From contig CDROCS010000473.1 of assembly GCA_977020255.1 (NCBI GenBank), positions 682,001 through 746,000 of the forward strand: a DNA stretch of 64,000 nt, in the 5' to 3' direction. Below, piece after piece: positions 4,700-62,930 of this stretch. A model generated the notes under the pieces. It made no database searches and was not told where the DNA came from. It saw only the letters and a list, made by a program, of their open reading frames with translations. Origin of the DNA: Obrimoposthia wandeli (Eukaryota). The stretch's first letter is position 1. The number at the start of each line of letters is the position of its first letter. The position numbers were made by a program, and so were the translations under genes.

Positions 4700-6483
4700 A
4701 TCACTTAAATAATAAATATGTTATAGTTAAGGTGCCATTAGGAAATTAAATTTTATTAAACGTAGGTGTAGATTAAAATATTGAAAGTCTTTTAAAATCA
4801 GAAGTTACTAAATTAGGACAGGCTACGGTTCAATTTTTCATAACAGTGCAGTTTAAAAATTTCAATGAGGAAACTAAAACTTGGGTAATTTCACATAAAG
4901 CAACTGTTTTCTATGATAATTTTGTAACTGAAATTGGAAGAAACCTAGATGAAAAAATTGTTAATTATAGCGAGTTAAGTAGTGGATGGACTCTAGTTAG
5001 AATTCACGATGTTAGCTTTGTTCTAACAAAGTTCACTGACATGATATATCTTTCGTGGAGTTCATACATTCCTTCACCTAAATCTCTTCAACTTTCACGT
5101 TCCATTGTTAACGTACAAAACAGTGGCAACCTTTGCTTTCTGTATAGCGTGTTGGCAATCCGTAAAGGGGATGTAAATTCTTAGCACAGAGAACGTGTCA
5201 GTAAATATATCCCTTTTATAAATGAATTGCAGTATCATTGAATAGATTTTTCTGTTAAATTAACTGCGATATCAAAATTTGAACACCTTAATAACTTGAG
5301 TATTAATGTATTCAAATATAATACTAATATCCCAGTTAATGTAACATATGAAGAAATTTTTAAAATCCTTTTGTAGATGTAATTTAAAGGAGCAAAAATG
5401 AGGGGACTCTGGTCAACTTAATTTTGCTCGAACATAATAAAAAACTCCACTATGCTGCAATTCCTAATTTAGATAAGCTTCGGCAGGACTATTATTCTTA
5501 GGCCCCAATATTACACAGTATCATAATTTTCCTATCCAAATTGTATTTTAGATTTTATGTTAAAATTAGAAGAATTAGGAACTACAATTGTCAAACCGTG
5601 GTATGATCTTAATGCTCATCAAGCAATGATCATGACAGGCATAGACTGGGTTAATTTTAATTCTTGTAGGATTATGTTATTTGTGTGGTATCCAGTCTAA
5701 GTTAGTAGGAGATCACGATCATGTTACGGGCGATACTTGTGAGCGGCGTGCAACCTCTGTAATCTTGGCCATCGTCTCCCTAAAAAAACACGCATTCCCA
5801 TCGTGTTTCATAATCTCAAAGGATATGATTTGCATCATATACTTAAATACGTGTTGGGTACATTAAGCTCCTGGGAAATTTCATGTATACCTCAAACTTC
5901 AGATAAATACTTATCTTTAACTGCATATACTGAATTATGCAGTTTAATATTTATAGATTCACTGCAGTTTTTGAGCGGGTCTTTAAAAAATTTAACGGCA
6001 TCTTTAAATGCATGGCCAATTACACAGAAGGCGTTCCCAGCTTCGGTTAATGATAAGGAGATTTTTCCGTATAAATTTGCAAAAACCTTTGCGGATTTAG
6101 AAAATTCTACAGAAATCCCACCCATAACTGAATTTGATGGTGTAAATCTTCAAGACTATAATGAGGCTCGTACATTTTGAGAGAATAATTGTCGAAATCT
6201 TCTTGAATATATGCTTTATTAAATGAAGTTAGACATTTATCTTTTAGCTGAAGTTTTTGAGTCCTTTCGTGTAAAATCTTTAGCAGATGATGAGCTAGAT
6301 ACCATGCATTTCTTTAGTTTACCTGGTCTTTCATGGGCAACAGCAATAAAAACTCTAAAAATCAATATCGAGTTACTGCAAGATCCCGCGATGTATCAAA
6401 TGTATGATTATGGTATACGCGGTAAAATGACTTTTGTCAACAAACATCATGTTGTCAAAAATCAATCCACGGAGATTCTGTAA
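4700..6483 (+). pseudogene. pPolB N-terminal two-thirds (family A), disrupted and truncated
   Basis: SSGW, SSYIPSP, VNVQNSGNLCFLYSVLA, DHDH, HNLKGYD, FIDSLQFL, FPYKF, DIYLLAEVFESFR, GIRGKMTFVNKH; close homolog of 25009-27410. Confidence 0.9.
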
Positions 6484-7140
6484 CATACATACTTTGTGAT
6501 CCAGACACCGTATCAACATCCACTGTTGACAATGACAATTTTATAAACCACCTGCTAAATTGAGAAAAAAAGTTACATATCATTCTATAATTACAGCAGT
6601 CAAGCTATCAAAAAAAGCAAAGCTCTTCTTCAACAAACAAACAAAGTTTGCCAACAGATGGTTACTTATGGTATCAACCTACTGACGCCTATATAAGCTG
6701 GAGTTCTTAAGGCAATCCATTGAGAAGGAGAGAAAGTGACAGCTACCATGAAACATGCACTGCTAGAAGAGGAATGAGCCTTACATTTCGATTTTAAGAA
6801 GAATGGAAATATAGATATTCAAGTTGTGATTTAGAAAAATAAAAATAGTGAATTCAAGCTAGATATCCTTGGATTGAAAGACGGCAGTAATTATTTTGGA
6901 GGGTTTGAGATACGTACCAACACATCGTGCTTGATTTGCTTTTGAAGCATATAATGGATGGAATATTGGGAGGCAAAATAACAGCATATAATATCAGCTA
7001 CGCTTTTATAAATCAGTTAGTAGAAAATTATGTTATTCTAAAATCAAAGTTTGAGCAGAGCAGCGTCAAGATCAAGATTGCAAATATAAAATGGAGAGAT
7101 GCTTGAGAGGAACTTGTACATTATTACCAGTATTACAAGA
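6484..7140 (+). mobile_element. Degenerate DNA-transposase-like fragment replacing the Polinton centre
   Basis: Interrupted reading (AGVLKAI...EGEKV...EEE.ALHFDFKKNG..DIQVV) resembles LHxDGK-type invertebrate transposases; no intact ORF or TIR seen. Confidence 0.3.
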
Positions 7141-7141
7141 A

Positions 7142-7438
7142 TCATGAATACTTTCCTTTTGTGAATTTCGAATTAAAAATATAATTAACAGTTGTTACAT
7201 CTGCATTTACTGCTAAATTATTACCATCCCGATTTAATACTTTTATTTGAACATAAAGCAAAGTATCATTCAAATTTAAATACTCGCTATTGGAACCATT
7301 AATATTAAATTCTAAATCGGTTAAAGTGGTTCCTGAAACTGAGTTAACTAGAAATATTTCTTCAAAGGAAGCATTATCTACATCTACTTGGGTAAGTGGT
7401 TTATCAAAAATACACAATTCAGTTTTGGCACAACTCAT
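7142..7438 (-). pseudogene. Major capsid protein N-terminal fragment
   Basis: MSCAKTELCIFDKPLTQV...DLEFNINGSNSEYLNLNDTLLYVQIKV, near-identical to 23132-23701. Confidence 0.88.
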
Positions 7439-7439
7439 T

Positions 7440-7795
7440 TTGCAAATATTGTTCCTTCAACTTTCTTACGTTTGTTTATATTATATTTTTGCTTCTTTTT
7501 AACGTTTAAATCAACTACCTTCTTGGCTTTTATTTGATTTATCTTTTCTAATCAAATTAGCAACGTCAGGTAATACATTATCAATTTCATTAAGTGCATG
7601 CTTCTTAAATGTTAATATTAGTTTATTGTCATTAGATGAAAGGTAGTCCTTTCCTAATTTTGATACAAATCGCCCGAGTTTCTTTAAAAGAGGAACGGCA
7701 AATCTACCTAATGTTCTAAGTCAGCCAGATCCATATTGTTTACCAACAAAATATGGTAATTCTCCACCTTGTTGGCTGTGATTATAAGCTTCAAT
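7440..7795 (-). pseudogene. Basic core-like protein (QQGGELPYFVGKQYGSG type)
   Basis: Reverse complement matches 22759-23130; Lys/Arg-rich with GG/GxG protease-type motifs. Confidence 0.7.
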
Positions 7796-8637
7796 TATTG
7801 CCAGATTCGACATTTTGTTTTCTTAAATGTATTGTTAAACTTGTCTTGGCTCCGTACGTGAAATCTATCAGTTGTCCATAATCATCTATAATATTTACTT
7901 CAATATTGTTAGAAGAAAAGAGAGCAACTGGAAGATACATTGGTTGATTTATACGCATACCAACGTCCCCATCTTTAGTTTCATTTTGAGATATCCATAT
8001 TGTTCTCAAAAGTGGAACTCGTTGTCTTCCTACAAGCGTTGTTTCTATTAAATTAGTATAAATATATAAATGATTACCAACATTTAAAAGTGTTGCCTTA
8101 TTTTTGCTTTAATGGTTTTTATTGTATGGGTTTCAAAGGTATTTCTGTTTAAACCGAAGTTTTTAGCGAGTTTATCATCAAATGAAACCCGTTTTATATT
8201 TATCTTTACTGTAAACGTTAATTTAGCATTGTTTAATGTTACACATTTATCCAAATATTCACTACATTCCTTCTGTATTAATTCACATAAATTCACTTCA
8301 CTATCTATTTATAATCTTTTGAAATCTTTTTCAGTTTCACTAGTCTTTGGTCTCATTTCAAATAACAACACTTTTGCTACTCTACTAGGAACATTTATAA
8401 CCGATTAAAATGAGACTATATCCCGTCTATTACGGGCTACTGTTTGTTCACTATCAAAACCGAATTGAAGAGCTTTTTTTCAGATTCAAATGTAATTTTA
8501 ATAACTTGAAGATATTTAAATCGATTTTTAAATCTGACTTTGTTATTTTCCCAATCGATAATAAAGCTACTAGCGTAATTATCTGGTTGAGTCTTCGGGC
8601 ATCCGTTACTAGGTAAAACCATATACATAGACTTCAT
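7790..8637 (-). pseudogene. Minor capsid (penton-like) protein, fragmented
   Basis: MKSMYMVLPSNGCPKTQPDNYASSF N-terminus and MYLPV...NIEVNIIDDYGQLIDF C-terminus; homolog of 21733-22781. Confidence 0.75.
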
Positions 8638-8639
8638 AT

Positions 8640-9748
8640 TATATTAGATGCTAATATCCAAGTTGAGTCTGAATAACCATGTCATTTAACAAAGTATTGT
8701 TTATGTTTACCTGTACCCTTAGATTTTAATATTTTTTGAATATGGAAAACGCTAGGTTTATTTGATATTACTTGTAGTTCTTGCTCGTAAAATTTACCGC
8801 GAACGATATTATTGTCAGCATCTTTAATAGTATACATTATTGGATTACTCTTTTGATCAATTTTACTTATACAAAATATTTCATCGCTCCAATTCTGATC
8901 AAAGTTTTTAATAAATAGAGTAGAGCTAATTTTCGAAATTCGAACATATTCGTTTTTCTTATATTTAGCTTTTTAAATATTTTCTTTTTATTTCCTTCTT
9001 TTGTGAAATAATTTTTTATTCGATCTCTTAAAGTACGATTAAATCTTTCTACTACTGCTGCTTTCTACTGTGAAAACACTACAAAGTGATTTATAATATT
9101 TTGTTTAAATTATGATTGAACTTGCTTATTATAAAATTATTTTCCTAAATCAGTTTGCACATTTTGTGGAATGCCTTCTTTTAATATTTCTTTAATGGCT
9201 TCAAGCATAGCTATTGAAGACTTTGCTTTAACTGGAATTGCACGAGCAAACCTGCTCAATACATCAATACATGTTAAATATATCGATATCCCTTATTAAT
9301 GAAAGAATATGGGATCATCTCAATCAAATTCATTGCCATAAATTATTAGGACCGCTGGTTTTGTAAGCTCTAGTTGGAAACCTTCTTCTCATCGGCTTGT
9401 TCAGACTGTAGGCTAACTGATCGCTCAACCATTTCTGCGTTTTCTTGTAATTTTGTTTTGTTCTTTTTGCTAATTTTGAAACTCCAGTGTAGCCAATTGC
9501 CATAAATTATTAGGACCGCTGGTTTTGTAAGCTCTAGTTGGAAACATTCTTCTCATCGGCTTGTTCAGACTGTAGGCTAACTGATCGCTCAACCATTCCT
9601 GCGTTTTGTTGTAATTTTGTTTTGTTCTTTTTGCTAATTTTGAAACTCCGGTGTATCCAATTGGATCTTTTGGATTGAACCATATCTTCTCCATTACAAC
9701 AATTTGAATAGAAAGAAAATTTAAATTTAGGTAAAGAAGGGTTAGCAC
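8640..9748 (-). pseudogene. Polinton retroviral-type integrase with C-terminal chromo-like region, disrupted
   Basis: WFNPKDPIGYTG, PNNLWQ.DL, TCIDVLSRFARA, AAVVERFNRTLRDR, YEQEL; internal 164-bp tandem duplication. Confidence 0.85.
9333..9655. repeat. 164-bp tandem duplication inside the integrase
   Basis: ttgccataaattattaggaccgctgg... starts at both 9333 and 9497. Confidence 0.9.
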
Positions 9749-11957: not shown

Positions 11958-17413
<5,456 letters not shown>

Positions 17414-18541: not shown

Positions 18542-18660
18542 AGTAGGTGGATGTGTCCGGTCTAATCCACATCCCCCTCCCACCCTCTGTCCTTTAAAAC
18601 TGTGCATGTGTGTGGAGTGAAATTTCGTGCATGTGTGTCGAGTGAAATTTCATGTATGTC
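18542..18660 (+). repeat. Polinton left terminus with fold-back and 25-bp subterminal repeats
   Basis: agtaggtggatgtgt is shared with 44371 and imperfectly with the reverse complement ending at 37996. ggatgtg...cacatcc hairpin. tgcatgtgtgt.gagtgaaatttc repeats recur at about 57722. Confidence 0.65.
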
Positions 18661-18943: not shown

Positions 18944-19252
18944 TTAAACATAAAACAACATATTGGCTTCACTCAAAGTCCAGAGAGGCTGCATTTTCCC
19001 GTCATCAGCAAAATATCCATTGAGACGTATTGAGATATTCCATAGTTCTTCATCTAGAATTGGAGCAATCAAATATCCTTGATCATCTTTAAAATCCAGA
19101 CTGGGATCAGTTTCAAACTGGAAACAATTTCCTTCATATACATAATCAGGAATGTAAAATCCCAAAATATTTTTCAATTGATCAATATCATTTGTTGTTA
19201 AAATTTCGATGAGATATTTATTCTCCACCTTTGATATTTTCACAGGATTCAT
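18944..19252 (-). CDS. Polinton accessory protein, IRLxGY..PxW family member A
   Basis: Intact 102-aa ORF with a near-identical intact copy at 58116-58418; motif WNISIRLNGY...PLW. Confidence 0.7.
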   Translation of the reverse strand: MNPVKISKVENKYLIEILTTNDIDQLKNILGFYIPDYVYEGNCFQFETDPSLDFKDDQGYLIAPILDEELWNISIRLNGYFADDGKMQPLWTLSEANMLFYV

Positions 19253-19474
19253 AACTCATATAATTTGACGCCTCTTTAATATATTACATAGTTTTCCTTT
19301 TGAAATTCTTTCTGGATAATAAAAATTTGCTACACATCTCTTATCCATTCTAAAATAAGGAAACTGATTAAAAAAACAATGTTTATAAAAAAATACATAT
19401 ATTTAAAAAATAAAACTGATTTATTAACTGAAAGAAACATAGTAAACCCGATTACAATTTATTACACGCAAAAG

Positions 19475-19957
19475 TTAAAACATATAAATATGAGCACGTT
19501 CAATTTTCCACATAGGCAACTTTGTCCCCATTTCATCTTTCTTGTAACCATAAAGTCGAATTGTTACAGTCCATTGCTTCTTTTTCGGAAATGCATCAAT
19601 ATCAACATATCTTCCATAGTCATCTAGAAATGCTTCATCAGGTCCTCGGATATAAAATTCGTCCTTATTGAAAGTAAAATTCGGAACTGCCTTTTCAAAT
19701 TTCTGTTTAAGATAATGAAAATCTGGTTTTTGAATATTTGATAGATAGTAGCTGAACTTTCTTCTTTCAATTGTCACAGGATTTACTAAAGCAATCAGTT
19801 GAGCCTTCTTCAAGAATCTGACTTTGTATTTGAAATATTGTTTCACTTCTTCATACATATCCTTATCCGATTCTTCAAACATTTCTATATCTTCGTCATC
19901 GCTTAATACTCGTTGGCTATCATCCATCGTTGATAATTGTCTTTGATATGGATGCAT
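19475..19957 (-). CDS. Polinton accessory protein, IRLxGY..PxW family member B
   Basis: Intact 160-aa ORF with acidic N-terminus; motif WTVTIRLYGY...PMWKI; decayed copy at about 58700-59110. Confidence 0.7.
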   Translation of the reverse strand: MHPYQRQLSTMDDSQRVLSDDEDIEMFEESDKDMYEEVKQYFKYKVRFLKKAQLIALVNPVTIERRKFSYYLSNIQKPDFHYLKQKFEKAVPNFTFNKDEFYIRGPDEAFLDDYGRYVDIDAFPKKKQWTVTIRLYGYKKDEMGTKLPMWKIERAHIYMF

Positions 19958-20201
19958 TTACTATGATTTGTCCTCCAATGACGCATTCTTTTATACTAAT
20001 TTCTAACAAAGATATGAATTGGTTAATATAACTAAAGCATTGAATTTGATTGGACTAAATCCATATTAAAAATCAAATTTGATTGGAAGAAATATATCAT
20101 CCAATTATACTAGGTTTGCAAGATAATTACAAGAAACGTGCAATAAAAAAGCAGGTTCAGACATATATAAAGAAAATTTTACAGAATACCATTTTAGTCT
20201 A

Positions 20202-20698
20202 ATGAAACTTGTAAATATAAATTATAAAGCTAGAACAGAAGATGATGTTTCGTACTTACCATTCAATGAATGGAAGCCGAGACAATATGTGGAAAAGTTT
20301 GACAATTTTATAGTTGTTATTTTTCCTACAGTTAGTTTTTTTTATTTTCATATTGAATTCTTTTAGGAAATTGTCGTGTTATGGGATGCAAAATACCAAT
20401 ACTTGGGTTCAATTTACCATTTGGAATTCGAATCACTGCAATACAATCAATCACGATTTCGGCTAATCTTGGGAAACAGATAAATCTTTTAAAAACTGCA
20501 GAGAAAATGAAAGAAGAATGCATGTTTGAACCAGAAATTTTTCCTGCTCTCAGTTATTTGAAGTTTAAACCGCTATGTGTAAATATATTTTCCAGTGGTA
20601 AAGTTATGATATTGGGATTAAAAAATTTTGATTATCCAGACATTGTTGATTTGATTTTAGAAAATATATCTTATTACACCTTGTTATCTTTTCTATAA
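20202..20698 (+). CDS. Compact TATA-binding-protein-like gene, one mini-intron at about 20331-20366
   Basis: Exon 2 encodes INLLKTAEKMKEECMFEPEIFPALSYLKFKPLCVNIFSSGKVMILGLK, matching TBP repeat 2 (YEPELFPGLIYR...LLIFVSGKIVLTGAK). Exon 1 encodes MKLVNINYKA...KPRQY...VVIFPT, continuing as NCRVMGCK, matching repeat 1. The GTTAGT donor is one base out of frame. Confidence 0.75.
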
Positions 20699-20726
20699 AC
20701 AAACCCGTTTAAACTTATTGTTTCAA

Positions 20727-20933
20727 ATGAATAATACTATAAATAGAGACAATGAAGTGGATCGTCTTGCCGACGAAATATTTTCTGTAAAAATTAGGGG
20801 TAAAGAAATTTTATCAGAATTAAAAAATAATGATATAACAAGAGATAACATTGAAATATTGGTTAGATCACACGTTATTCGAGAATTTATAAATCGTACA
20901 CAAGTAAATAAAATTATAGCCAAATATTCATAA
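20727..20933 (+). CDS. Small hypothetical Polinton protein downstream of the TBP-like gene
   Basis: 68-aa ORF from ATG 20727; the 3' half recurs at about 59153-59260. Confidence 0.45.
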   Translation: MNNTINRDNEVDRLADEIFSVKIRGKEILSELKNNDITRDNIEILVRSHVIREFINRTQVNKIIAKYS

Positions 20934-21032
20934 TTTAATTTTTGTATTTCATCTACAATAGCTCTAACATTGTACATTTCAATAAGGAAACTTCTATGAT
21001 AATATAAACAATATTAAAAAAATGAAAGAGTA

Positions 21033-21210
21033 TATGCAATGGAGCTAAATAATAATGCTGTATAATAATGCTGTGGAAGTGAAAGACACATTTCGTATGT
21101 AAATTGTTGCAAAATGAATCTCTTTTCAATTCTAGTTTCAAAAATATTTATTGGCATCATGGTGGAGGAGGGGAAAGCGGGTTAACCAAAACAGAAGTTT
21201 GCGTACTTTA
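21033..21210 (+). pseudogene. Packaging ATPase N-terminal remnant, joined by deletion to integrase
   Basis: Matches 59362-59473 (IIGPIESGKTHF Walker A) and 62931-63000; homology switches to integrase after cagaagtttgc. Confidence 0.7.
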
Positions 21211-21735
21211 AGAGATCGAATAAAAAAGTATTTCACAAAAGAAGGAAATAAAAAATGGATCCTAGTTTTACCTAAAATAATACATGCATATAATCACTCG
21301 GAACATAGAGGTCTCAAGGGAATGAGACCTGTTGATGTTACTAATAAAAATTTTATGGATATTTGGGTGAACAGGAATAAAAAAGAAAACATTAAAAAAG
21401 CTAAATATAAGAAAAACGAATATGTCCGAATTTCGAAAATTAGCTCTACTCCATTTATTAAAAACTTTGATCAGAATTGGAGCGATGAAATATTTTTTAT
21501 AAGTAAAATTGATCAAAAGAGTAATCCAATAATGTATACTATTAAAGATGCTGACAATAATATCGTTCACGGTAAATTTTACGAGCAAGAACTACAAGTA
21601 ATATCAAATAAACCTAGCGTTTTCCGTATTCAAAAAATATTAAAATCTAAGGGTGCCGGTAAACATAAGCAATACTATGTTAAATGGGATGGTTATTCAG
21701 ATCCAACTTGGATATCAGCATCTAATATAATATGA
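21211..21735 (+). pseudogene. Integrase C-terminal half with chromo-like domain
   Basis: RTLRDRIKKYFT, AYNHSEHRGL, QNWSDEIF, GKFYEQELQ, YYVKWDGYSDPTW. Confidence 0.88.
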
Positions 21736-22781
21736 AGTCTATGTATATGGTTTTACCTAGTAACGGATGTCCGAAGACTCAACCAGATAATTACGCTAGT
21801 AGCTTTATTATCGATTGGGAAAATCCTATAAATCTCCAAGGAGAATGGGAAGCGGCTTTAACAGAATTTTCCTTTTATTATTCTCCAATTACTATCAGAA
21901 AAAACTCACATATTTCGTTTACAAAATAATTTGATCATGAAAAATCAATTGAAGCTGTGATTGGGTTTGATAGTAAAAGAAAATTCTATTACAATTGTAT
22001 AGATAAAGAAGTAAAAGTAATATATAGATTTAAAAATCGACTAAAACATTTTTAAAATCCTTTTCAAATTATATTTGGATCTGATAGAGAAGCTCTTCAA
22101 TTCGGTTTTGACAGTGGACATGTAGAGGTATGAAGAAATCTGATATAGCCTCGTCTAAATCGTTTAAAAATGTTCTTGATAGAGTAACAAAAGTGTTTTT
22201 AGTTGAAACGAGACCAAAGTATGTAGTGGAACTGAAAATTTTTTCAATAGATTATAAATTAGATAGTCAAGTGAATTTCTGTAAATTAATACAGAAGGAA
22301 TGTAGTGAATATTTCGATAAATGTGAAACATTAAAAAAATGGTAAAATAACGTTTACAGTAAAGAGCAATATAATACGAGTATTATTTGATGATAAACTC
22401 GCTAAAAACCTTGGTTTAAACAGTAATACCTTTGAAACCCATACAATAAAAACCATAAAAGCTAAAAATAAGGCAAAACATTTAAATGCTGTTAATCATT
22501 TATATATTTATACTAATTTAATAGAACCAACGCTTGTAGGAGGACAGCGAGTTCCACTTTTGAGAACAATATGGATATCTAAAAATGAAACTAGAGATGG
22601 GGACGCTGTCGGTATGTGTATAGATCAACCAATGTATCTTCCAGTTTCTCTCTTTTCTATAAACAATATTGAAGTAAATATTAGAGATGATTCCGAACAA
22701 CTAATAGATTTCACGTACGGGGCTAAGACAAGTTTAACAATACATTTAAGAAAACAAAATGGCGAATCCAGCAATAATTGA
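21733..22781 (+). pseudogene. Minor capsid (penton-like) protein, frameshifted
   Basis: MYMVLPSNGCP...WENPINLQGEWEAALTEF; IYIYTNLIEPTLVGGQRVPLLRTI...MYLPV. Confidence 0.8.
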
Positions 22782-23130
22782 AGCTTATAGTCAAAGCCAA
22801 CAAGGTGGAGAATTACCATATTTTGTTGGTAAACAATATGGATTTGGCTGGCTTAGAACATTAGGTAGATTTGCCTTTCCTCTTTTAAAGAGACTCGGGC
22901 GATTTATATCAAAATTAGGAAAGGATTACCTTCATCTAAGGACAATAAACTAATACCAACTTTTAAGAAGCATGCGCTTGATGAACTTGATAATGTTTTA
23001 CACGAAGTTGCTAATTTGATAAAAAAACGTAAATCAAATAAAAGCCAAGGAGGTACTGGATTTAAAAGTAAAAAGAAGCAAAAAATCAATATAAACAAAC
23101 GTAAGAAAGTTGAAGGAACAATATTTGCAA
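22759..23130 (+). pseudogene. Basic core-like protein, frameshifted
   Basis: MANPAIIEAYSQSQQGGELPYFVGKQYGFGWLRTLGRFAFPLLK followed by a Lys-rich tail. Confidence 0.7.
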
Positions 23131-23131
23131 A

Positions 23132-24360
23132 ATGAGTTGCGCCAAAACTGAATTGTGTATTTTTGATAAACCACTTCCACAAGTAATTGTAGATAATGCT
23201 TCCTTTGAAGAAATATTTCTAGTTAACTCAGTTTCAGGAACCACTTTAACCGATTTAGAATTTAATATTAATGGTTCCAATAGCGAGTATTTAGATTTGA
23301 ATGATACTTTGCTTTATGTACAAATAAAAGTATTAAATCGGGATGGTACTAATTTAGATGAAAATGCAGATGTAACACCTGTAAATTATCTCTTTAATTA
23401 TTTATTTAGTGATGCCATTGTTACTCTTAATAATGTCAAAATTGAAGGTGGAAATTCTTCCTATGCTCATAAAGCTTTGATTGAAAGTCTTTTGAATTAT
23501 AGTACTGATACTCAAAATACCAATTTGGCAACCATTGGTTATGATAAAACGGTCGCAACTCGCAAAGAATGGATTGCAGGTTCTAAAGCTTACGAAATGT
23601 GTGGGACTTTGAGATTGAATTTCTTTGAACAACCGAAATATTTAATTCCCGGTGTTAATGTACATCTTCGTTTGAAACGTAATAAATGGATTTTTCTTTG
23701 ATAAGCACAGACGTTCTGAAACCCAGACTTGAAATTTTGGATGCAAAATTGTATGTTCGAAGAGTTAAAACCGAACAATCAGTTTTAATGGCACATAATA
23801 TAGGAATGGAAAAAAACAATGCTTGTTATCCTATTAGAGAAACTAAACTTATATCCTATTCTTTAGGTACGGGTACACAAGCTTTTAATAAGGATCAAAC
23901 TTTTGGTGATGTAAGATTACCGAAATTCGTTTTAATTTCTTTTCAAAAAACTGCAAAGTATCTAGGAAATTATACGACAGATGCAACTCAATTTGACAAT
24001 CTTAATGTAGGTTCAGTGACACTTTCACGAAATACTGATTATCGCGAAACATATAAAACAGATTTCAAAGGTAACGCTTATGCTTTGGCTTATACGCAAT
24101 CTATTATTCGAAATTTGGGCCAACTAGATAAAAATATAAACAATGGTATTTCTTTCACTGAGTTTAAAAGCAGCTGCCCGTTCTTCACATTTGTTTTGGC
24201 ACCAGACTTTGATATAAACCAATGCCAACTACCAAAGAATGAAAATTTACTACTAGAAATTAAGTTCAATGCAGCTTTATCACATCATACTTCGGTGCTT
24301 ATTTACGGAGTGTTTGATTCTGAAATACAAATCAATAAAAACAGAACTGTCATATTATAG
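23132..24360 (+). pseudogene. Major capsid protein (double jelly-roll, Polinton type), one frameshift near 23690
   Basis: Overlapping ORFs 23132-23701 and 23686-24360; FFEQPKYLIPGVNVHLRLKR, LEILDAKLYVRRVK, NLLLEIKF motifs. Confidence 0.9.
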
Positions 24361-24399
24361 AATGAAGTAAGACATTTTTTAAATTTATATTTATTAATT

Positions 24400-24750
24400 T
24401 TTATTTAGTTCAGCACAAGTACAAGACTCAGCAGAGAAGGTCTTGGGTCATAAATTCAATGGAGTTTATCCTATTGATATGATTCCATTTTTTTCAATCT
24501 GGAGGATACATTATCAATACTCATACTTCGAATTTACCAGGAGAACATTGGATAGCTATTTATGTTAGAGAGTGGACAATACATGTATTTGATCCACTTG
24601 CAATGTATTATCCACACAAACTTGTTTCAACTATTCAAAAAGGACGAAGAAGAGTATTTTACAACAAGATACAATATCAGGATCCTGCGACGAGAAACTG
24701 TGGACATTTATGTATTTTATGGTTATCGTTGCAAAACGATTAGTGTGTTA
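24400..24750 (+). pseudogene. Adenain-like cysteine protease, disrupted
   Basis: FNGVYPID, YIINTHTSNLPGEHWIAIY, and a Gln/Cys segment (QDPA...CG). Confidence 0.75.
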
Positions 24751-25008
24751 TAAAAATAAATATTTTTAATGTTTTATTTTGAATTATTTTTTTAAAATCC
24801 CTAAAAATATAAGGGTAAAATAATAAAAGACATAAGAAGAAATTTTTTTTAATACATTTAATAAAAACAACATAACAATGAAATCTGTCAGCAAAGATAA
24901 AGTCCATCCTAAAAAATGTTTTGAAATAACAAAAAGTTAGAGTCAAGGTGCCATAGGGATCTAAAATTTTAAAAAACTAATCTAAAAAAATCAAAAAGTG
25001 AAACCCGT

Positions 25009-27410
25009 TTAAATTCGGAAGTGTCCATAAGCCAGGCTAGCGTTCTTTTCTACCAAAAAGCGCTTGTCGTCATTACTACTCAAAGCGATGTTGGTTGATT
25101 TATGGGAATACAGTTGATGGGCTCTTGAAATAAATCTAGTTTGCTCAACGCTTTCAATACACCCAGTATCATAAACTTTCATGTATGCCTCATGTGTAAG
25201 ATTGTTTCTTCCCACAGCCTTTGCTCTCATTGAACATGTATTATTATATGTATGTAAACTGTAGCATTTAGGGCGTAGGAAAATACAATCATCATACGTA
25301 ACCTGTCCCTCGCTTTCATCCTTCAATTTCCCGATAATATTCTTTAAACTCATAGAATGTAGAGGATGATTAGCGGGATATTTATGGGTATCTAATAAGT
25401 TGTCCCTAAACATTGCCGGTAATAATTGATTATCTAAACTAACATTCCTACATTCTAAAAAGAAAGAGTCAGTGTCTCCAGCTGCGATTTTGATCTCACA
25501 ATTGAATTCTCGTCGATATTTCTCTAATTCTACGTATTTAAGCTCGTACATTCTGAGTTTAGAAATGTCTAAAACCGTTTGACCTATATAACTCGGTCAA
25601 TTGAGACAAATACTCTGTTTTCCTAATAACACAGCTACCAAGTAATCTGCAATTGTTGATGCATCTGCTGAAAATAATATATTAAATAATTTCTTTACCT
25701 TTGAATTAGGTGGACATTGATGAACAGGCGCTACTGGAAGATCATCTAATTTATCATGTACATTGGAAGGGATTGTTAAGTCAACCTCAACCAAATAGCC
25801 GACGTCTGATGAAACTGTATCAACAGTAGCCAAATCTGTCATCAACTTATTCAACTCTTCCTCATCATAAACCCACTTAAAGTTGGCATGATGTAGAGGT
25901 TGAGTAAGCGCCCACCTATACAAATTATTTATGTCGATGTACAGAATCTCCGTGGATTGATTTTTGACAACATGATGTTTGTTGACAAAAGTCATTCCAC
26001 CGCGTATACCATAATCATACATTGATACATCGTGGGATCTTGCAGTAACTCGATATTATTTTTAAGAGTTTTTATTGCTGTTGCCCATGAAAGACCAAGT
26101 AAACTAAATAAATGCATGGGATCTAGCCCATCTTCTGCTAAAGACTTTACACGAAAGGACTCAAAAACATCAGCTAAAAGATAAATGTTTAACGTCATAT
26201 AATAAAGCATATATTCAAGAAGATTTCGACAATTATTCACCCAAAATGTACGGGCCTCATTATATTCTTGAAGACTTACACTTTCAAATTCAGTTATGGG
26301 TGGGATTTCTGTAATATTTTTTAAATCTGCAAAGGTTTTTGCAAATTTATACGGAAAAATCCCCTTATCATTAACTGAAGCTGGGAACACTGACTGTGTG
26401 ATTGGCCATGCATTTAGAGATGCCGTTAAAATTTTTAAAGACCCGCTCAAAAACTGCAGAGAATCTATGAATCTTAAACTGCAGAATTCAGTATATGCAG
26501 TTAAAGATAAATATTTCTCTGAAGTCTGAGGTATACAAGAAATTTCCCAAGAGCTTAATGTACTCAACGCATATTTAAGTATATGATGCAAATCATATCC
26601 TTTGAGGTTATGAAACACGATCGGAATTCGTGGTTTTTTAGGGAGACGACGGCCAAGGTTACAAAGGTTGCACGCCGCTCCCAAGTATCGCCCCGTAACA
26701 TGATCGTGATCTCTGACTAACTTAGACTGGGTTCCACACAAATAACATAATCTACAAGAAATAAAATTAAGCCAGTCTATGCCTGTTATGATCATTGCTT
26801 GATGGGCATTGAGATCATACCACGGTTTGACAATTGTTGTTGCTAATTCTTCTAATTTTAACATAAAATCTAAAATACAATTTGGAACGGAAAATTTATG
26901 ATACTGTGTAATATTGAGGCCTAAGAATTGTAGTCCTGCCGAAGCCGGTAGGTGAATACTCTCATACTGGTCGTGCAATGCTAAAATTGACTCAAAATCT
27001 GCATACACCCTGAATTCCACGGGTATGCATTTTGCCCAATCCCTGAGTTTTAAATCCTTATCCTTAGGCATGCTGTATAGCGTATTGTCATCAGGATTCA
27101 GTGAACATAATGTCAGATGTTTGCTGTAAGAGAGCTCGGATCGGAATCCATGCAAACATCTATGACACCACTTACACCTTATCCTAACCGGTAAGGCTCC
27201 ATTATCTAAATTTAGAAGACGATCTAAATTAGGAATTGGAGCATAATGGAATTTTTTATTATGTTCATGCAAAATTAAGTTGACCTGAGTCCCCTCATTT
27301 TTGCTCCTATAAATAACATCTATAAAAGGATTTTTAAAAATTTCTTCATCTGTTACATTAACTGGGATATCAGTATTGTATTTGTTATTATTATTATTAT
27401 TATCAAACAT
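25009..27410 (-). pseudogene. pPolB (family A), 5'-truncated with frameshifts and deletion
   Basis: ORFs 25992-27410, 25597-26022 and 25009-25551: YADFESIL, RDHDH, HNLKGYD, FIDSLQFL, GIRGG, DINNLY, GDTDS, GKLKDE, RPKCYS, DDKR. Confidence 0.93.
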
Positions 27411-28889: not shown

Positions 28890-29297
28890 TTATTCATAAA
28901 CTCTAAATGCTTCAATTATTTTCCATATAGGTATTATCAATCCAGAGGGCCCGATCTTGTATCCTTGAATTCTGATTTCGAGAATCCATTCTAATCTAGG
29001 AGGAGGTCCATCGAATATTGTTCCATTCTCCTGCTTGAAAGTGGCATTTTGTCCCTTGATTATGAATTTGTTTTCCTGAAGCTCATATTTGATTCCGAAT
29101 TGTATGAAGATAATATTGATTCTCTCTTTATCCACTGAAGTCAAATTTGATACCTGCAAATCAAATCTATTCGGCTCTATGTTGATAGGAAAAATAAAAT
29201 TATAGTTGTGACATTTCTTCAAAAAGTGCATATCATATCCATGGTTTTTGTGCATAGACTGATATAGCTTTTCCAAATTCGGATTCTCGAAATTCAT
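28890..29297 (-). CDS. Polinton accessory protein, IRLxGY..PxW family member C
   Basis: Intact 135-aa ORF; WILEIRIQGY...PIWKI aligns by eye with members A and B. Confidence 0.7.
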   Translation of the reverse strand: MNFENPNLEKLYQSMHKNHGYDMHFLKKCHNYNFIFPINIEPNRFDLQVSNLTSVDKERINIIFIQFGIKYELQENKFIIKGQNATFKQENGTIFDGPPPRLEWILEIRIQGYKIGPSGLIIPIWKIIEAFRVYE

Positions 29298-29364: not shown

Positions 29365-29883
29365 TGTTGTTTATATAAATCGCTTCGTTTTAGTCATATC
29401 CTTGAAGGGTCAAAGCCACACCAGTACCGGTTCAAGTGTGATAGTTATACTATTACAATTTTCAAATCTGGTAATTTATTTTACATTTAAGTTTTAATAT
29501 AATTTAGGAACATGTCGAATAATGAAGTGTAAAGCTGCGCTAGATGAAAGAACTCTTCCTTTCAAAATCAAAATCGAGAGAATTCCATCAATCAGTGTCA
29601 GTACTAATTTGAAAAAACCGATAAACCTGAACAAGATGAGTAAGAGTATGGGATTGGAAGCAGTTTACGAACCAGAAATCTTTCCTGGGCTACCATATAT
29701 CAAATACAATCCTCTATGCGTGAACATTTTTGAAAGCGGAAGGTGACGATACTTGGGGTTTAGGCCCTAGAATATGAATATCTTATTGAATGTATTTTAT
29801 TTAATATACATCTTCATACTTGTGTTTTTTCTTTCCTAAACAAAGACATTAAAAAAAGATGCAAAAGTTGCAAAAAGTTGTAA
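29365..29883 (+). pseudogene. Second TBP-like gene, intron 29471-29507, frameshifted near its 3' end
   Basis: Splicing yields KPHQYRFKCDSYTITIFKSG-TCRIMKCK in frame with ...VYEPEIFPGLPYIKYNPLCVNIFESG; a shifted frame continues VTILG. Confidence 0.75.
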
Positions 29884-30183: not shown

Positions 30184-30600
30184 ATGAGTGAGATTTTAGT
30201 AAATCAATTATATATTGGAAATTATCGCGATGGGTTTGATGAAATTGAGCTTCTAAAATCGAAATCCACACATGTAATAAATACATCTCCAGTGGATAAG
30301 ATATCTTATAAGGAATTAATGTATACATCGATCTTTGTAAATACGAAATTAGGAGAAACAATATTACAATATTATAAACAGACTAATAATATAATTAAAG
30401 AAACCATCAAAAATAGAGGGAAAGTTTTAGTATGTGGTCATTATGGAGGTTTACATGCTGTTTGTATTGTTATTGCATTTTTATCTCTTTCAATGGGTGT
30501 TAGCTCTGCATGGAATTTTGTTAAAGCTAAACGTAGTATTGCAACGCTTAATGCAACTTTGCTTAATCAAATACGTATTTTTAATCATTATCATACATAA
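30184..30600 (+). CDS. Dual-specificity phosphatase-fold protein with degenerate active site
   Basis: SEILVNQLYIGN, THVIN, GKVLV, IVIAFL, FVKAKR and LNATLLNQI follow the DUSP pattern; HCxxGxxRS is replaced by CGHYGGLHA. Confidence 0.8.
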   Translation: MSEILVNQLYIGNYRDGFDEIELLKSKSTHVINTSPVDKISYKELMYTSIFVNTKLGETILQYYKQTNNIIKETIKNRGKVLVCGHYGGLHAVCIVIAFLSLSMGVSSAWNFVKAKRSIATLNATLLNQIRIFNHYHT

Positions 30601-38029: not shown

Positions 38030-41000
38030 ATCGAATAGAATGTTAGGCTTCTTGCAAAACCTCTTTCCATGAAGATGGGGTTAGGTTTCGGCTGTGTAGA
38101 GTTAATGATATAGTTTTCCAGATTGTCCCATTTAGTGGCTCTAATTGACTATTTCCTGATGGATGATATGGTGTTGTTCGGGTTTGGGCGACGTTAAGTT
38201 TCGTTAAGAATTCCCTGACCTCTTGACTCTTAAATTGGGTACCTCGATCGATGTGAATTGACGAAGGACACCCAAACGTAGAGAAGAGGTAGCACGTTTT
38301 TACTGTGTGTGCTTCCATGATTTTGCAGGGGTAAGCAAACGGGAATCTTGAATATTCGTCTATCATCACTAGAAGGTATCGGTAAGGGCCGGATTGCGGT
38401 AGCGATCCTTTGAAGTCTATACTCAATTTTTCAAAGGGTCACGTCGATTTTATTAGCCGTGACATCTTGGGTCGTTAGTATTGGGGTTTGAGTATTGCGC
38501 ATGTTTTGCAATTTTCACAAACGTCTCTGACTTCCTTTATAGAGAATGGGAGGTTTTTGCTTCTGATGAAATGCCAGAGCTTCGTAATTCCTGGGTGGCC
38601 CAACGCTAGATGGATTTCAAGGACCGTTTTAGATTTGATCACGTTGCATCTGGACATTGCGTATGCAGCTAGATTGAGTTCGCCTGGGATGTGTGTTACG
38701 TCGTAGGAATATAAGGACAACTCAATTCTCCATCGAATAATTTTGTCATTTTTACTTTTTCCATTTATCTTTTGATTGAAGATAAACGAGAGCGCCTTTT
38801 GGTCAGTTTTGATTGAAAAGTGGTTCGTGATCAATATTGATCTCCATTTTCGCACACTTTTGACGATCGCCATTTCTTCTTTCTCGATTGAAGATAATCT
38901 TTCTTCGTTCGAGTTCAGGGTTCTGGAGAAGAATGCAATAGGTTTATCTTCTTACAGCATTACTCCTTATAAGGCGGTTTTTGAAGCGTCCGTTTGAATT
39001 TCAATCGGGATATTGCATTTGATTGGATATAGTGTAGATGATAAGATTTCCTTTTTCAATTGAGAGAATGCTGTTTTTGCTGACAGGGGCAGTGGAAATG
39101 TTGCTTTCAGAAGAGGTTGGATTTTGTATGAAAATGATGGTATCCATTTGGCGTAATAGCTCAGGAGTCTACGTAGTCTCTGTAATTCCTTTGTATTGGT
39201 TGGTATTGGGTAATCAGTAATTGATTTTAACCTTTCTGCATCAGGGCACATTGAATTCTCTTCGATTTGATATCCAAGAAAATGTATGGACGTTTTTCGA
39301 AATAAGCATTTATCCATGTTGAGCGAGATTTGGACTTTTTTAAACACTTCAAGGAATTTATTGACGTTTTTGTCATGATCTTCTAGAGATGGCCCGACGA
39401 TAATTATGTCATCTAGATAAGCGTAGGTGTCTTTGAGATTGTTATCGTCGATGATGTTGTTCATAGTCCGTTGGAAATCGCTGACGGCATTAGTAACTCC
39501 AAATGGTAGGTGTCTGAACTGATATAAGTTACCGGAGGCTTGGAAAGCCCTGAATTTTTTTGTTGTCTGGGTGCAGAGGTACCTGGTGGTAGGCTGATCG
39601 CCGGTCCAGTTTTCTAAAGTATTTATTTTTGATGTTTCTCGCACTAGTTTGTCCTTGTTAGGTAATGGGTACGCGTCTTAAATCATGAATTTGTTGATCA
39701 TCTGTGGATAATCGATTACTAGACGCATTTTCACGTTCCTGTTTCTGACACCCTTTAATAATTTTTCAACTTCGAGTTTTATGAAGTTCAGGTTCTAGCA
39801 GTAGGTTCTTGATTTGGTCGCGATGGGAAATACATCGTCTCTCATGTTCTCGAAGATTCGTGGCGGTTCAATGTGCATTGGTAGGACGGATGCTAGTGTC
39901 AGCGGTTGAATCTCTCCGTCAAATTTGAAGGTTATTGATTTATGTTTTTTCATAAAGTCTTGGCCAAGGATTACTGAAGTACATAGGTTATCCAGTACGT
40001 TCAATCGTTGATTTCTATACAGCACATTGTTTAGTTCAAAATCCATGAAACAGAGGTTGTTTAATTGATGCCAGAGATATTGGCATATTTTGACCTGATA
40101 ATTTGAAGTACTTTACTAAGTTTCTGTCGATGAAACTGAGTTCGCTTCCACTGTCGATTAGTGCATCGTGATACCTGTCGAGGATCTTTATTTATCCTAT
40201 TGCTTTTCGGAGTCCTGTAGGGGATTTAATGGCTGCATTTGCTAAATGTGTCGCTGCGTTGATTGTATCTTTCTTTCTCGGCAGACAGACGCTGGATAAG
40301 TGTCCAGTTTTCATGCATTTGTTGCATGTTGCATTTTTTGTTGGACATAGATTTCTTACATGATATTCTTTTCTCCAGAAGTAACATTTCCTCGTTTTTG
40401 GACTGCTGCTGCCGTAAAAAATTCTGATATTTTTTCTGATTGCGGGAAGTTAAGGACCGCGTCTAAATGTGTTGATCTTCTAACATAAGTGTCTGAGTTC
40501 TCCATAGCAGCTTCCAGAGATTGAGCTTGGGAGATTGCTTGAGTTATACTCAGTTCTTCGTTTTCTAGAAGTCTTTGCCGAGTTGACTGCAGTTTAATTC
40601 CTGACACGAAGGCGACTCGGATATACTCGTCTCGGTGTACTTCTGTCGTGATAGTTTTGAAGTTGCAGTTTGTGGCTAGAACTTGTAGATAAGTCGCAAA
40701 GCCTTCAACGTTTTCTTCTGCTTTCTGGGACCTGTGCATATGCTGATATCTAGAGAATATCTCATTCTTTTTTGCAATGAGGCTTCGGTCCAGGATATCG
40801 ATAGCTTCGTAGTATGACTTTGCATTTACGATTCTTGAGTAAATGTTTGAAGATACGTTACTGATGAGGAGAATAAGTTTTTCTTCGTCCGTCGCTTTGG
40901 TCCGGTTTGTAGTTAGGTCGAAGATCCGTTTTCAATATTTATACTCGGTCTCGGATTTACCTTCCTGTTTTGGAAAAGTAAAGAGTTTCACCATCGATGA
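38030..41000 (-). mobile_element. Ty3/gypsy LTR retrotransposon remnant (gag, PR, RT, RH, INT)
   Basis: Gag CNKCMKTGHLSSVC knuckle, ALIDSGSE protease, PFG and YLDD RT motifs, IQTDASK and TDQKAL RNase H, HLALGHPG...CENC and IDFKG/DRGTQF integrase in gypsy order. Confidence 0.92.
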
Positions 41001-53648: not shown

Positions 53649-55670
53649 CCCTTTCACTGTCCTGTGTATCACACGTGATATACATAAGTGTATGATACAT
53701 AGTTAAAATTATTTTAAATGTTAATAAATACTACACGACTGACAGAAAAAGTTCGTTTATGGTTCTAAACGTATCAGGGGTGCTTAAAGATATAACACAA
53801 TAGAATAGCATGCATCATATATGATTCTCAAGATTCCTGAAGATAATAACATTTTCTATTTTATTAAATGAAAATTTGAAAGTAAATAAAGGGTATTTTA
53901 ATCTAAATACTTTATTACAAACATTACAAATCTTTTTATATAATACAAATTAAACATTTTTTTCTTAAACAATTTAGAACACCACAAAACAAAAATATAT
54001 ATTTTTACAGGGAAAATGCTGACCTAATATTTTTTTGTTTATATTTTAAGCATGTATATTATTAAAACATGTTTAACAAAATGCTTTATTACATTGAATG
54101 TACTCGGTAGAAACTTGCTTAGTCTTCTTCTGTGCAATTTCACGACAATCTCTTGATGTTAACTATTCATAGAAAGAAAGGCATCGTTTACGCGCTATTT
54201 TTCCATTTCTTTTCTGGCATTTGATGTCAATTGATGTGATTTTTTTCTTGGCGATTGAAGTAGATATTAGTGCTTGAAACACAGATTTTGAAAAGTCAAC
54301 CAATGTTGCATTTTTTCTGTATTAAAATGTTTGTTATAAGTTATATAACTATTTAATACAGATATGCTAATAAGTTGGAATACAATTTTTTATATCATTT
54401 TACACTCTTCCGTACAGGACTATAGTATTCAATCATTTGGTCAGACAAATCTATTCCTCTTTTCACTCTGTTGTAATCACAATTACACTAGGCTTCTTGG
54501 TAGCTTCACCATTTCTCGATAATTTACCAGTTTCATTATAATCTGTTCCGTGAAAAGTAGGCATAAGGACTTCTTTTTTATCATTGTATTTCATGACTCT
54601 TAATCCATTGTTAATAGCTCCTGTTATTTCTATCTTCTTTACTTTTGATTTGGTTATTATTTTTTAGTAGATTTGTTCTATTTTTCCTCAAAGTACCACA
54701 ATAGTCCGTTCCATGGGCCTGTAAATAGTTGGCAAGAGTAACGCTGCTATACCAGTTGTCAGCAACGAAAAATCGTCCAGAATTAATTAGCTTCTCCCCA
54801 AGATCAATAACAGCAGATCCTGAATGATCCAATCCAGGCCTTCTTTCGCTTGATCCCTTTCCACAATAAATTGAAGCATTCCATACATAGCCAGACATAT
54901 CACATAATTTAAACATTTTAATTCCATAATGATGACATTTTCCTAAGATAAGACCGCCACTGTGACCAATCATTGTTTCATCAATAGAGACCTCTTTCCC
55001 TGGAATATATAATTCCTGAATTTTGTTGAAGAATAGTTCCATAAGCTTTGAAATTTTATTTAATTTGTCTGAATCAGCATCAGCCTTATTACTGAAATGC
55101 CAGTTTTTCAATATTAATGAGAAACGATTATAAAAAAATATTTATGAGATAGAATATTGGATGAAACAGTAATTGACTAGTGTTCCAGTAATCTTAAAGT
55201 CTCGGAAATTTAATGATTCCTGTCAATATAATAATAGCAATAAATTTTTTCATTTCATTTGTCGTAACATGGTGCATTCGTGATTGTGAAGTATTGGCAA
55301 TATATTGTTGATATTATTGTTTGTTTCAAGTACCATTAATTGTAAAATATCTTCATCAACTATTTGCTCATAAATCATTATGGGTGCTATATTTTGAGCC
55401 TCATTATCTAGTCATTTTTGAAGTCCAAAATTTTCCATTATGCAATTCAATCTAATTGGCCAGTTTTATTTTATAAAATTTATGTAATATATTGTAATAG
55501 AAAGAAAATAAAAATTTAGATATCTAATGCCATTTCTCTACATAAATAATAATGATATTATATATTTTTAATGTGAATCATATATGATACACAAGACATC
55601 TCACTATTAAATCACCAGAGACGTATTTGACTAAATAGCAAAATTACCGTGAAAATTGAACGGGTTTAAA
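53649..55670 (-). mobile_element. piggyBac transposon remnant
   Basis: TTAA then CCCTTT end at 53645-53654; SIDETM, YGIKMFKLCD, DNWYSS, GTLRKNR, YNRVKRGIDLSDQ and a C-terminal Cys-rich domain; degenerate opposite TIR near 55575-55610. Confidence 0.88.
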
Positions 55671-57400: not shown

Positions 57401-58115
57401 GCATCATATTCATATATAAATACATTTATATAAAGATTATTTTGTTGTTTAAATGTTGGAATATCTATAAGCTTTGTAGGTATTTAAGAAGCTTTATATA
57501 TGTATGAAATTACATAAATATTAAATATATTGTGAAACTCTTTGTCTATTTACAACTATTTCATTCCGTTTTTGTATAGCGAGAATACTACATAAAAACA
57601 CAATGAGTCGTAGTTTTACACATTAACAACTGCCTTTGACTGGTATAAATCTTGAGATGTTGGAATATAGCTACTACCACTCATATACATTAGGGGGGGC
57701 TACCACTGTCCTTTAAAACCGTGCATGTGTGTGGAGTGAAATTTTGTGCATGTGTGTTGAGAGAAATGTCGTGTATGTGTGTAGGGAAAACGTTTTTAAA
57801 AAATTGAGAAAGCAACGAATAGGAAGGGGGGGTCCGCCCACATATTTTTTATTTTACTTTGAAATTTACCGCGAATCTTAAAAGTGATTAGAGAAGACCA
57901 CGGGAATCCATATTGGCCCCGGCAGCTTATCGCAGACGAGATTTCAAATAATATGTGAATATATTACTACTATTTTTAAGAAAGATTAATAAATTGCTAC
58001 ATGTTTTTGTTAAATATTTAGGTCAGATTTATAAGAGAAAAATTAAATCAGATCTATATAATTTAGAGGAGAAAACAAAATACGAGTCAAAATTATTTCA
58101 AAACATTTATTAAAC

Positions 58116-58418
58116 CTAAAACATCATATTGGCTTCACTCAAAGTCCAAAGAGGCTGCATTTTCCCGCCATCAGCAAAATATCCATTGAGACGTATTGAG
58201 ATATTCCATAGTTCTTCATCTGGAATTGGAGCAATCAAATATCCTAGATCAAATTTAAAAGCCAGACTGGGATCAGTTTCAAGCTGGAAACAATTTATTT
58301 CATATACATAATCAGGAATATAAAATCCCAAAATATTTTTCAATTGATCAATATCAGATGTTGTTAAAATTTCGATGAGATATTTTTTCTCCACTTTTGA
58401 TATTTTCACAGGATTCAT
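58116..58418 (-). CDS. Copy of IRLxGY..PxW family member A
   Basis: Intact 100-aa ORF near-identical to 18944-19252. Confidence 0.7.
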   Translation of the reverse strand: MNPVKISKVEKKYLIEILTTSDIDQLKNILGFYIPDYVYEINCFQLETDPSLAFKFDLGYLIAPIPDEELWNISIRLNGYFADGGKMQPLWTLSEANMMF

Positions 58419-61790: not shown

Positions 61791-61861
61791 ATAATTAGGC
61801 AAGGAAAATGAAAATTGAGAAAATTTGGCAATCTGACATTTTTTCAAGATTAACTATTTTT

Positions 61862-62870: not shown

Positions 62871-62930
62871 GCAAACATATATTGTGCACCAGTACTAATT
62901 CAATCGCTCCGCATCAAAAAAAAGCTACTT

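Follow-up and report, generated by a model that had tools for sequence, protein, structure and literature searches.

A reduced TBP-like protein of Polintons in Obrimoposthia wandeli as a candidate promoter factor for a recurrent TATAAACA box

The 64,000-nucleotide stretch of Obrimoposthia wandeli DNA analyzed here (the window) contains at 20202-20698 a TBP-like gene, referred to below as mini-TBP, and the question raised by this locus is what a mobile element does with such a protein. An earlier note, made from the sequence alone, had read 20202-20698 as one product that could be a viral basal factor or a dominant-negative decoy. The TBP likeness and the length of 153 codons were reproduced, but the gene is not a single frame and consists of two exons split by an intron. 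Exon 1 (20202-20331, plus strand) encodes strands S1-S4 of the N-lobe and ends inside the Gly codon after IFPT, the phase-1 intron (20332-20366, plus strand) spans 35 nt, and exon 2 (20367-20698, plus strand) encodes S5 of the N-lobe, a short linker and the whole C-lobe with its EPE stirrup. A canonical TATA box, TATATAAA, is located at 20164-20171 (plus strand), 38 nt upstream of the ATG. The Pfam match to TBP, a check named in the earlier note, was obtained for exon 2 (ORF 20357-20695; PF00352, 47 bits, E 2.4e-12, cut-off 22.9) and for a second copy (ORF 29498-29743; 31 bits), and exon 2 also matches TBPs in the PDB down to an E-value of 2e-13. Exon 1 alone gave no Pfam match; it is 63% identical over 43 amino acids to the intronless relatives P0002 and P0004, and exon 2 shares 49-55% identity with intronless metagenomic proteins of 150-160 amino acids.

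The two-exon structure, with a predicted intron in the sister copies, is supported by sequence comparisons within the family to which this gene belongs (family A). From 60 loci examined, 54 copies were mapped, the window copy being entered twice. Exon 1 is 130 nt long in 46 of these 54 copies, the donor is GT in 48 and the acceptor AG in all of them, with intron lengths of 34-41 nt. An intron of 40 nt is located at the same position in the metagenome locus L041, the position recurs in a second family (family B), and the host TBP gene has no intron there. Intronless relatives of 143-160 amino acids were found both in the host genome and in metagenomes. A programmed frameshift was rejected: the GT-AG intron of the sister copies varies in length, and precisely this stretch is missing from the intronless relatives. 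In four sets of contigs from a single sample, which behaved like genomic DNA and are uninformative about expression, none of 15 joints listed out of 223 was located at the intron. Because its splice donor is non-canonical, the window copy is broken. Its type of exon junction occurs nine times in the genome, and the usual junction in at least 6,605 sister copies, a count possibly inflated by haplotigs. The host genome, AT-rich and 1.35 Gb in size, contains at least 150 protein-level matches with 95-100% identity to mini-TBP, and 8 of 27 mapped copies chosen via a neighboring gene are intact.

The element carrying the gene is identified as a Polinton/Maverick by its terminal inverted repeats (TIRs), 6-bp target-site duplications, pPolB and rve integrase, all found in family A, which agrees with the context proposed earlier. 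The duplications were present in all four TIR-bounded family A copies among ten regions fetched. The family A order, which fits Polinton/Maverick, is TIR, two SSB-like genes on the minus strand, TBP, ATPase, small ORFs, chromodomain integrase, putative minor capsid (named from its position), a small ORF, major capsid, protease and pPolB. The integrase matches PF00665 plus Chromo, the packaging ATPase gives a weak Pox_A32 match (E 0.02), and the protease of a sister copy a weak Peptidase_C5 match (E 0.033). In families A-D, the protease gene apparently starts with a very short exon followed by a short intron (L095:8700-8745, by eye).

The window element retains the left TIR only (18542-18650, plus strand), which starts AGTAGGTGGATG and pairs with the right TIR in sister copies. 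It is followed by a broken second SSB-like paralog (18944-19347, minus strand), with TATAAACA at 19387, and by the divergent neighbor of mini-TBP (19475-19957, minus strand), a single-stranded-DNA-binding protein with a predicted T7 gp2.5-like fold. The model of this neighbor has a pLDDT of 80.6 (AF2) and a middling similarity to T7 gp2.5 (Z 7.1, rmsd 3.5, 110 aligned); its top four fold matches are T7 gp2.5, Enc34 SSB, DUF2815 and ASFV CP312R. CCAAT/ATTGG boxes are located between the two divergent genes, each of which has its own canonical TATA box, that of the SSB-like gene being TATAAAAG at 19988-19995 (minus strand), 38 nt before the gene. Downstream of mini-TBP, a 5' piece of the ATPase gene is fused to a 3' integrase-chromodomain piece (21040-21735, plus strand) by a deletion of ~1.5 kb at 21202. 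A frameshifted major capsid gene (23132-24360, plus strand) gave no Pfam match and was assigned from atlas features, with values of 0.97-0.98 to clusters in which 10-13% of the members are DJR-like/Capsid_NCLDV. Finally, there are a remnant of an adenain-type protease (24483-24740, plus strand; 45% to an ORF of L040) and a broken protein-primed DNA polymerase B (25009-27410, minus strand; PF03175, E 4e-9). Inverted Polinton remnants at 5313-9707 are 89-96% identical to 21202-27384, and a third family A remnant (57703-59473) has the equivalent of 20000-20823, the whole mini-TBP gene, deleted. The window also contains a host DEAH-box helicase gene (12994-17413), which from its domains we take to be Prp43/DHX15-like, a remnant of an LTR-retrotransposon pol (38043-40931), a piece of a DDE_Tnp_1_7 transposase (54611-55042) and a satellite of 35-36 bp (61837-62883).

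The earlier note had also placed a divergent second copy at 29365-29883. A second mini-TBP is indeed present, in family B, but it starts later (29410-29883, plus strand), is truncated at the 5' end and carries an in-frame stop at 29744. The family B alignment begins at ~29410, and all 29 sister copies start at 29410-29419. Its phase-1 intron (29471-29507, 37 nt) corresponds to that of family A, and an SSB-like gene is located beside it (28890-29297, minus strand). This copy is, as judged from its sequence, a truncated pseudogene from a different Polinton family and no duplicate inside one element, and both mini-TBP copies of the window are dead remnants. The second element also contains a dual-specificity phosphatase (30184-30600, E 1.7e-11), and a DSP-like ORF is found near mini-TBP in the metagenome locus L033 too.

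Mini-TBP is present in all four annotated families (A-D), and in B, C and D it lies on the same strand as, and upstream of, the ATPase-to-capsid block. The gene of family C (L155:1498-1929) is intronless and coexists in the genome with the intron-bearing genes of A, B and D; the intron was therefore gained or lost within the lineage. This natural intronless copy matches PF00352 with 63.8 bits, with just one repeat scoring. Family D also encodes BIR and RING domains (IAP-like apoptosis inhibitor, L213:7223-8119), and family B a RING domain (L223:5051-5626). Among 24 metagenome loci, 23 belong to the mini-TBP family and one resembles archaeal-type TBP; L038, L040 and L041 carry ATPase or capsid genes. 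No locus was found among IMG/VR viral contigs with mini-TBP, plant-type TBP or capsid queries.

In order to examine the fold, a model was built with AlphaFold2 from 55 sequences for the intronless relative P0004 rather than for the window copy. The TBP saddle, another check named in the earlier note, is predicted for this relative (pLDDT 97.4): its residues 1-150 align with yeast TBP 65-238 (Z 13.8, rmsd 2.6, 150 aligned), and all 44 Foldseek matches listed in the PDB at E<=0.001 are TBPs. Long helices are predicted only at 86-96 and 136-147, in the C-lobe. Residues 1-85 contain no helix, and helices H1 and H2 of the N-lobe are missing, a deletion also seen in the alignment. The alignment likewise confirms that repeat 1 is shortened and that EPEIF, NIFSSG and VIFPT correspond to the Phe190, Phe207 and Phe116 positions. 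The fourth intercalating phenylalanine (Phe99 position) and the N-stirrup are lost, so that three of the four phenylalanines are kept. Sequence and model together place mini-TBP in the TBP superfamily, with two features of canonical TBP apparently absent, the full set of four phenylalanines and the basic patch of H2. Three tiers can be distinguished in the alignment, namely canonical TBP, proteins of 160-175 amino acids with a short N-stirrup and no Phe99, and mini forms which also lack H1/H2. The intermediate tier (P0077, P0085, P0105, P0114, P0115 and others) keeps H1/H2, as judged by alignment, and shares the DNA-face signature; the mini forms nest within it.

The profile search returned 50 clusters at E<=1e-30 and 340 at E<=1e-10. 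Removal of 11 canonical TBPs and one fragment from 156 matches left 144 family proteins, mostly without known genomic context. The profile that gathered them was built from the mini-TBP family itself, which inflates the following values: Phe116 is kept in 120 of 121 proteins, Phe190 in 139 of 141 and Phe207 in 136 of 136, and the two TFIIB-position glutamates in 125 of 140 (133 of 140 acidic when eight Asp are included) and 137 of 140. The DNA face is fixed at residues foreign to TBP, Val122 being replaced by Arg (121/122), Thr124 by Met (138/138), Asn159 by Ser/Thr (141/142), Leu205 by Asn (137/139), Val203 by Cys (107/142) and Ile194 by Arg (105/142). The mean frequency of the top residue is 0.82 on the DNA face versus 0.31 in the C-lobe helices. 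The set of DNA-face positions, and most of the yeast TBP residue numbers, are those we presume to apply. Numbering follows the offset of the P0004/yeast TBP structure alignment, apart from 194, 203 and 205, which were taken from PMC1636458; changes at these three TBP positions alter specificity according to the available part of that paper. In the available text of PMC7221094, TFIIB is contacted through the two C-lobe glutamates, and TFIIA, TAF1, Mot1/BTAF1 and Brf1/2 bind a patch of the N-lobe located mostly on H2. A three-sequence TFIIB profile was run against 1,580 ORF pieces, taken from six elements plus a control locus; it recovered the control at E 3e-49 and detected no TFIIB in the elements, where nothing scored below E 3, although a very divergent TFIIB could escape it.

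A candidate DNA target emerged as a word common to upstream regions. TATAAAC is the most enriched 7-mer over five TBP-bearing lineages (59 versus 13.4 expected), and TATAAACA occurs 12, 11, 14, 10 and 6 times in them (expected 1.1-2.8), the observed count being matched by none of 100 shuffles per element in any of the five. Three TBP-less stretches contained 5, 3 and 4 copies versus 2.6, 1.8 and 2.6 expected, which is no enrichment in this one TBP-less Polinton group of the same host; the stretches are related and one of them is TIR-bounded, so they constitute a single contrast. The link between protein and box is a correlation observed against one control group, the main weakness of the reading proposed below. 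The control Polinton running from L237:3278 to L238:8328 (G000:C2184) is TIR-bounded, 15 kb long and of another group, gave no TBP or SSB-like match, and contains a DJR-like capsid, PLA2-like/integrase and a 1,499-aa polymerase frame.

The box is located ~30-45 nt upstream of packaging and capsid start codons. An ATG opening at least 40 codons lies 28-46 nt downstream of 27 of 79 ATAAACA sites, an interval set after the sites had been seen. Such an ATG follows 4 of 79 sites when the orientation is reversed, none of 19 GTAAACA sites, 123 of 1,694 permuted words (7.3%) and, in TBP-less elements, 1 of 29 sites (Fisher p 0.0009). The other 52 sites have no ATG at this distance, some being 60-103 nt from it. 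Plus-strand boxes of the window are found at 20694-20701, overlapping the mini-TBP stop codon upstream of the next small ORF; at 21003-21010, before the packaging ATPase and in the same place in A, B, D and L041 (family C has CATAAACA there); at 22658-22665, within the putative minor capsid gene at its 3' end; and at 23090-23097, 42 nt upstream of the major capsid ATG. The minor capsid box lies in the codons TCT ATA AAC AAT, fixed in A, B, C and L041, and the codons ATA AAC before the major capsid gene are fixed in A, B, C, D, L041 and one further element. AAC accounts for just 23% of the codons for Asn, and ATA for 35% of those for Ile, and the same tripeptide in a polymerase is encoded with ATC AAT. 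The box of family D at L213:11972 lies 41 nt before a gene which in A, B, C and L041 has its box within the preceding gene, at a distance of 96-101 nt; this is possibly a case of promoter turnover. In L038, L040, L049 and L051 the box precedes capsid, ATPase, exonuclease-like or SSB genes. Since SSB, exonuclease-like and small accessory genes also carry it upstream, the term late for the box genes is our interpretation. None of 19 TBP genes is preceded by TATAAACA (20 were tried, one not located); a canonical TATA lies 35-47 nt ahead of eight of them, and 11 have none within 100 nt. Some box sites read TATATAAACA, which contains a canonical TATA usable by host TBP, and a few copies are located in or near the terminal repeats of families C and D. 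A poly(A) signal was rejected as the identity of the box, with several sites located inside upstream coding sequence before the stop and no positional signal for AATAAAA (7/114) or AATAAAT (3/97).

Retention of the glutamates, deletion of H2 and the lack of a detected TFIIB gene together led us to regard mini-TBP as a probable viral promoter factor acting through host TFIIB/Pol II. In this capacity it probably binds TATAAACA and recruits the host machinery to the capsid, packaging and integrase genes. The earlier basal-factor option is thus favored by fold, residues and box. Canonical TATA boxes would first allow host TBP to drive the gene for mini-TBP, as well as some of the SSB genes. Mini-TBP would next bind TATAAACA with its remodelled N-lobe turned towards the non-canonical CA end, and its EPE stirrup would recruit host TFIIB. 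Loss of H2 would strip the basic patch for TFIIA, TAF1, Mot1/BTAF1 and Brf1/2, and we propose that mini-TBP would therefore escape host eviction. The outcome would be an early-to-late switch of Polinton genes.

Four other explanations were weighed against this proposal. A neutral, recently captured pseudogene of host TBP might be suspected from the broken state of both window copies and the fact that just 8 of the 27 neighbor-picked copies are intact, but this description is true only of single copies after insertion and is refuted for the family, which leaves it next to no probability. The phylogeny suggested in the earlier note was carried out as a quick tree search of 55 rows, without named nucleocytovirus TBPs, and the mini and intermediate forms split from host TBP/TRF and from plant and archaeal-type TBPs as their own branch (SH-aLRT 100). 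When families are compared with each other, synonymous sites prove saturated or nearly so, at a dN of ~0.33-0.47; this and the separate branch exclude a recent origin from a host pseudogene. Identity is 30-35% to cellular TBP/TRF versus 53-55% to remote members of the family, the host TBP gene has no intron at the position concerned, and mini-TBP occurs in four of four annotated families. The dN/dS comparison, likewise suggested earlier, gave 0.10 between subfamilies B1 and B2, i.e., purifying selection. Within families, dN/dS is biased since most copies were chosen by protein likeness, and pN/pS is noisy and no evidence of selection (exon 2: 0.75 for singletons with eight stop variants, 0.31 for shared changes; exon 1: 0.33 and 1.59, with few changes). 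At the sequence level, purifying selection on mini-TBP is shown for at least four families of the genome and for metagenomic relatives.

The second option of the earlier note was a dominant-negative decoy, which would shut host genes down by sequestering host TFIIB or by blocking the TATA boxes of the host; a sponge-like protein that keeps the TFIIB stirrup and has no TFIIA/TAF1 surface would be in keeping with it. This option is a poor fit, since no surface is more conserved than the DNA face and the elements have a specific box to match: a sponge needs no DNA face fixed at new residues, and the element-wide box would be left unexplained. We consider the decoy improbable as the main function; such an effect could accompany a promoter factor. 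Binding of the saddle to element DNA such as the terminal repeats, for replication or integration rather than transcription, is suggested by the adjoining SSB-like and polymerase genes and by the few boxes in or near the repeats of C and D, but appears very improbable given nearly invariant TFIIB glutamates and box sites clustered at a fixed distance upstream of start codons. Less improbable than these, and still unlikely, is a genuine promoter element recognized by a protein of the host (host TBP, a TRF paralog or Forkhead), with mini-TBP otherwise employed. ATAAACA fits what we take to be the Forkhead consensus, some box sites include TATATAAA, the control is one TBP-less group only, and the host owns TBP as well as divergent TBP/TRF paralogs. 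Yet GTAAACA, the other Forkhead form, gave no positional signal (0/19), the signal is bound to orientation (27 vs 4 of 79), the TBP-less Polinton group of the same host is not enriched (5 vs 2.6 expected), and the TBP genes themselves lack the box (0/19). Furthermore, in the available part of PMC1636458, C is reported to be disfavored within the downstream half by a TBP mutant. Two host TBP genes form a head-to-head pair, one of them divergent (L085/L086, G000:C238), both intronless and intron-bearing TRF-like genes are present (L087-L090), and the host genome contains several Brf1-like loci.

Compared with cellular TBP/TRF (PF00352), mini-TBP shares the two-lobed saddle, Phe116/190/207, Asn69 and the EPE of the C-stirrup. 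It differs in its size of ~150 amino acids, in lacking H1, H2, the N-stirrup and Phe99, in being borne by a mobile element and in DNA-face residues fixed as Arg, Met, Ser, Cys and Asn. The closest functional analogy, in the accounts available to us, is with herpesviruses (KSHV ORF24, EBV BcRF1, HCMV UL87), nuclear DNA viruses that use their own TBP-like factor and a variant TATA box, the TATT late box, with host Pol II. The herpesvirus mimics are large multi-domain proteins within a viral complex of six members, which makes direct contact with Pol II, whereas mini-TBP is stand-alone and keeps the TFIIB stirrup; BcRF1 is a weak fold match (E 7.7e-4). By analogy, mini-TBP may work like these mimics and is no member of their family. 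A viral TBP fold is also common to nucleocytovirus TBPs (mimivirus-like, ASFV B263R homologs) and poxvirus VITF-3. According to the available text of PMC7221094, other viral TBPs mostly come with their own TFIIB and conserve the stirrup glutamate in ~40%, whereas no TFIIB was found with mini-TBP and its positions are 95-98% acidic. Likeness to Polintons/Mavericks/adintoviruses, as covered in the accessible part of PMC8502044, includes TIRs, 6-bp TSD, pPolB and chromodomain integrase, together with a putative ATPase, capsid and protease. In that paper (Starrett et al. 2021) a TBP label appears once, in the legend of a MELD-virus figure, known from the legend text alone; section 3.4 of the available text does not analyze the gene or describe intron, reduced fold or promoter box, and one supplementary text contains neither 'TBP' nor 'TATA'. 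The accessible part of PMC12220804 held no relevant passage, and our literature search, with many journals outside its coverage, returned no analysis of the mini-TBP gene or its box.

On balance, and with less assurance than for the promoter role itself, we favor the view that this is a widespread lineage of integrating Polintons with a reprogrammed switch made of one protein, a 150-aa TBP without the surface for host regulators that reads TATAAACA instead of TATA and works with host TFIIB. Other viral TBPs, as far as the available text covers them, mostly drop the contact to host TFIIB, and mini-TBP keeps the glutamates. It is a natural experiment on which TBP surfaces are dispensable and which residues set DNA specificity, and with more than 6,600 copies of one family, many TATAAACA boxes have been spread through the genome by the element itself. 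A factor of their own, with a box to match, makes the behavior of animal Polintons as real viruses, and the timing of their genes, directly testable. If true, mini-TBP would be a minimal natural TBP of altered specificity, and would provide direct evidence of a staged viral life cycle in supposed transposons.
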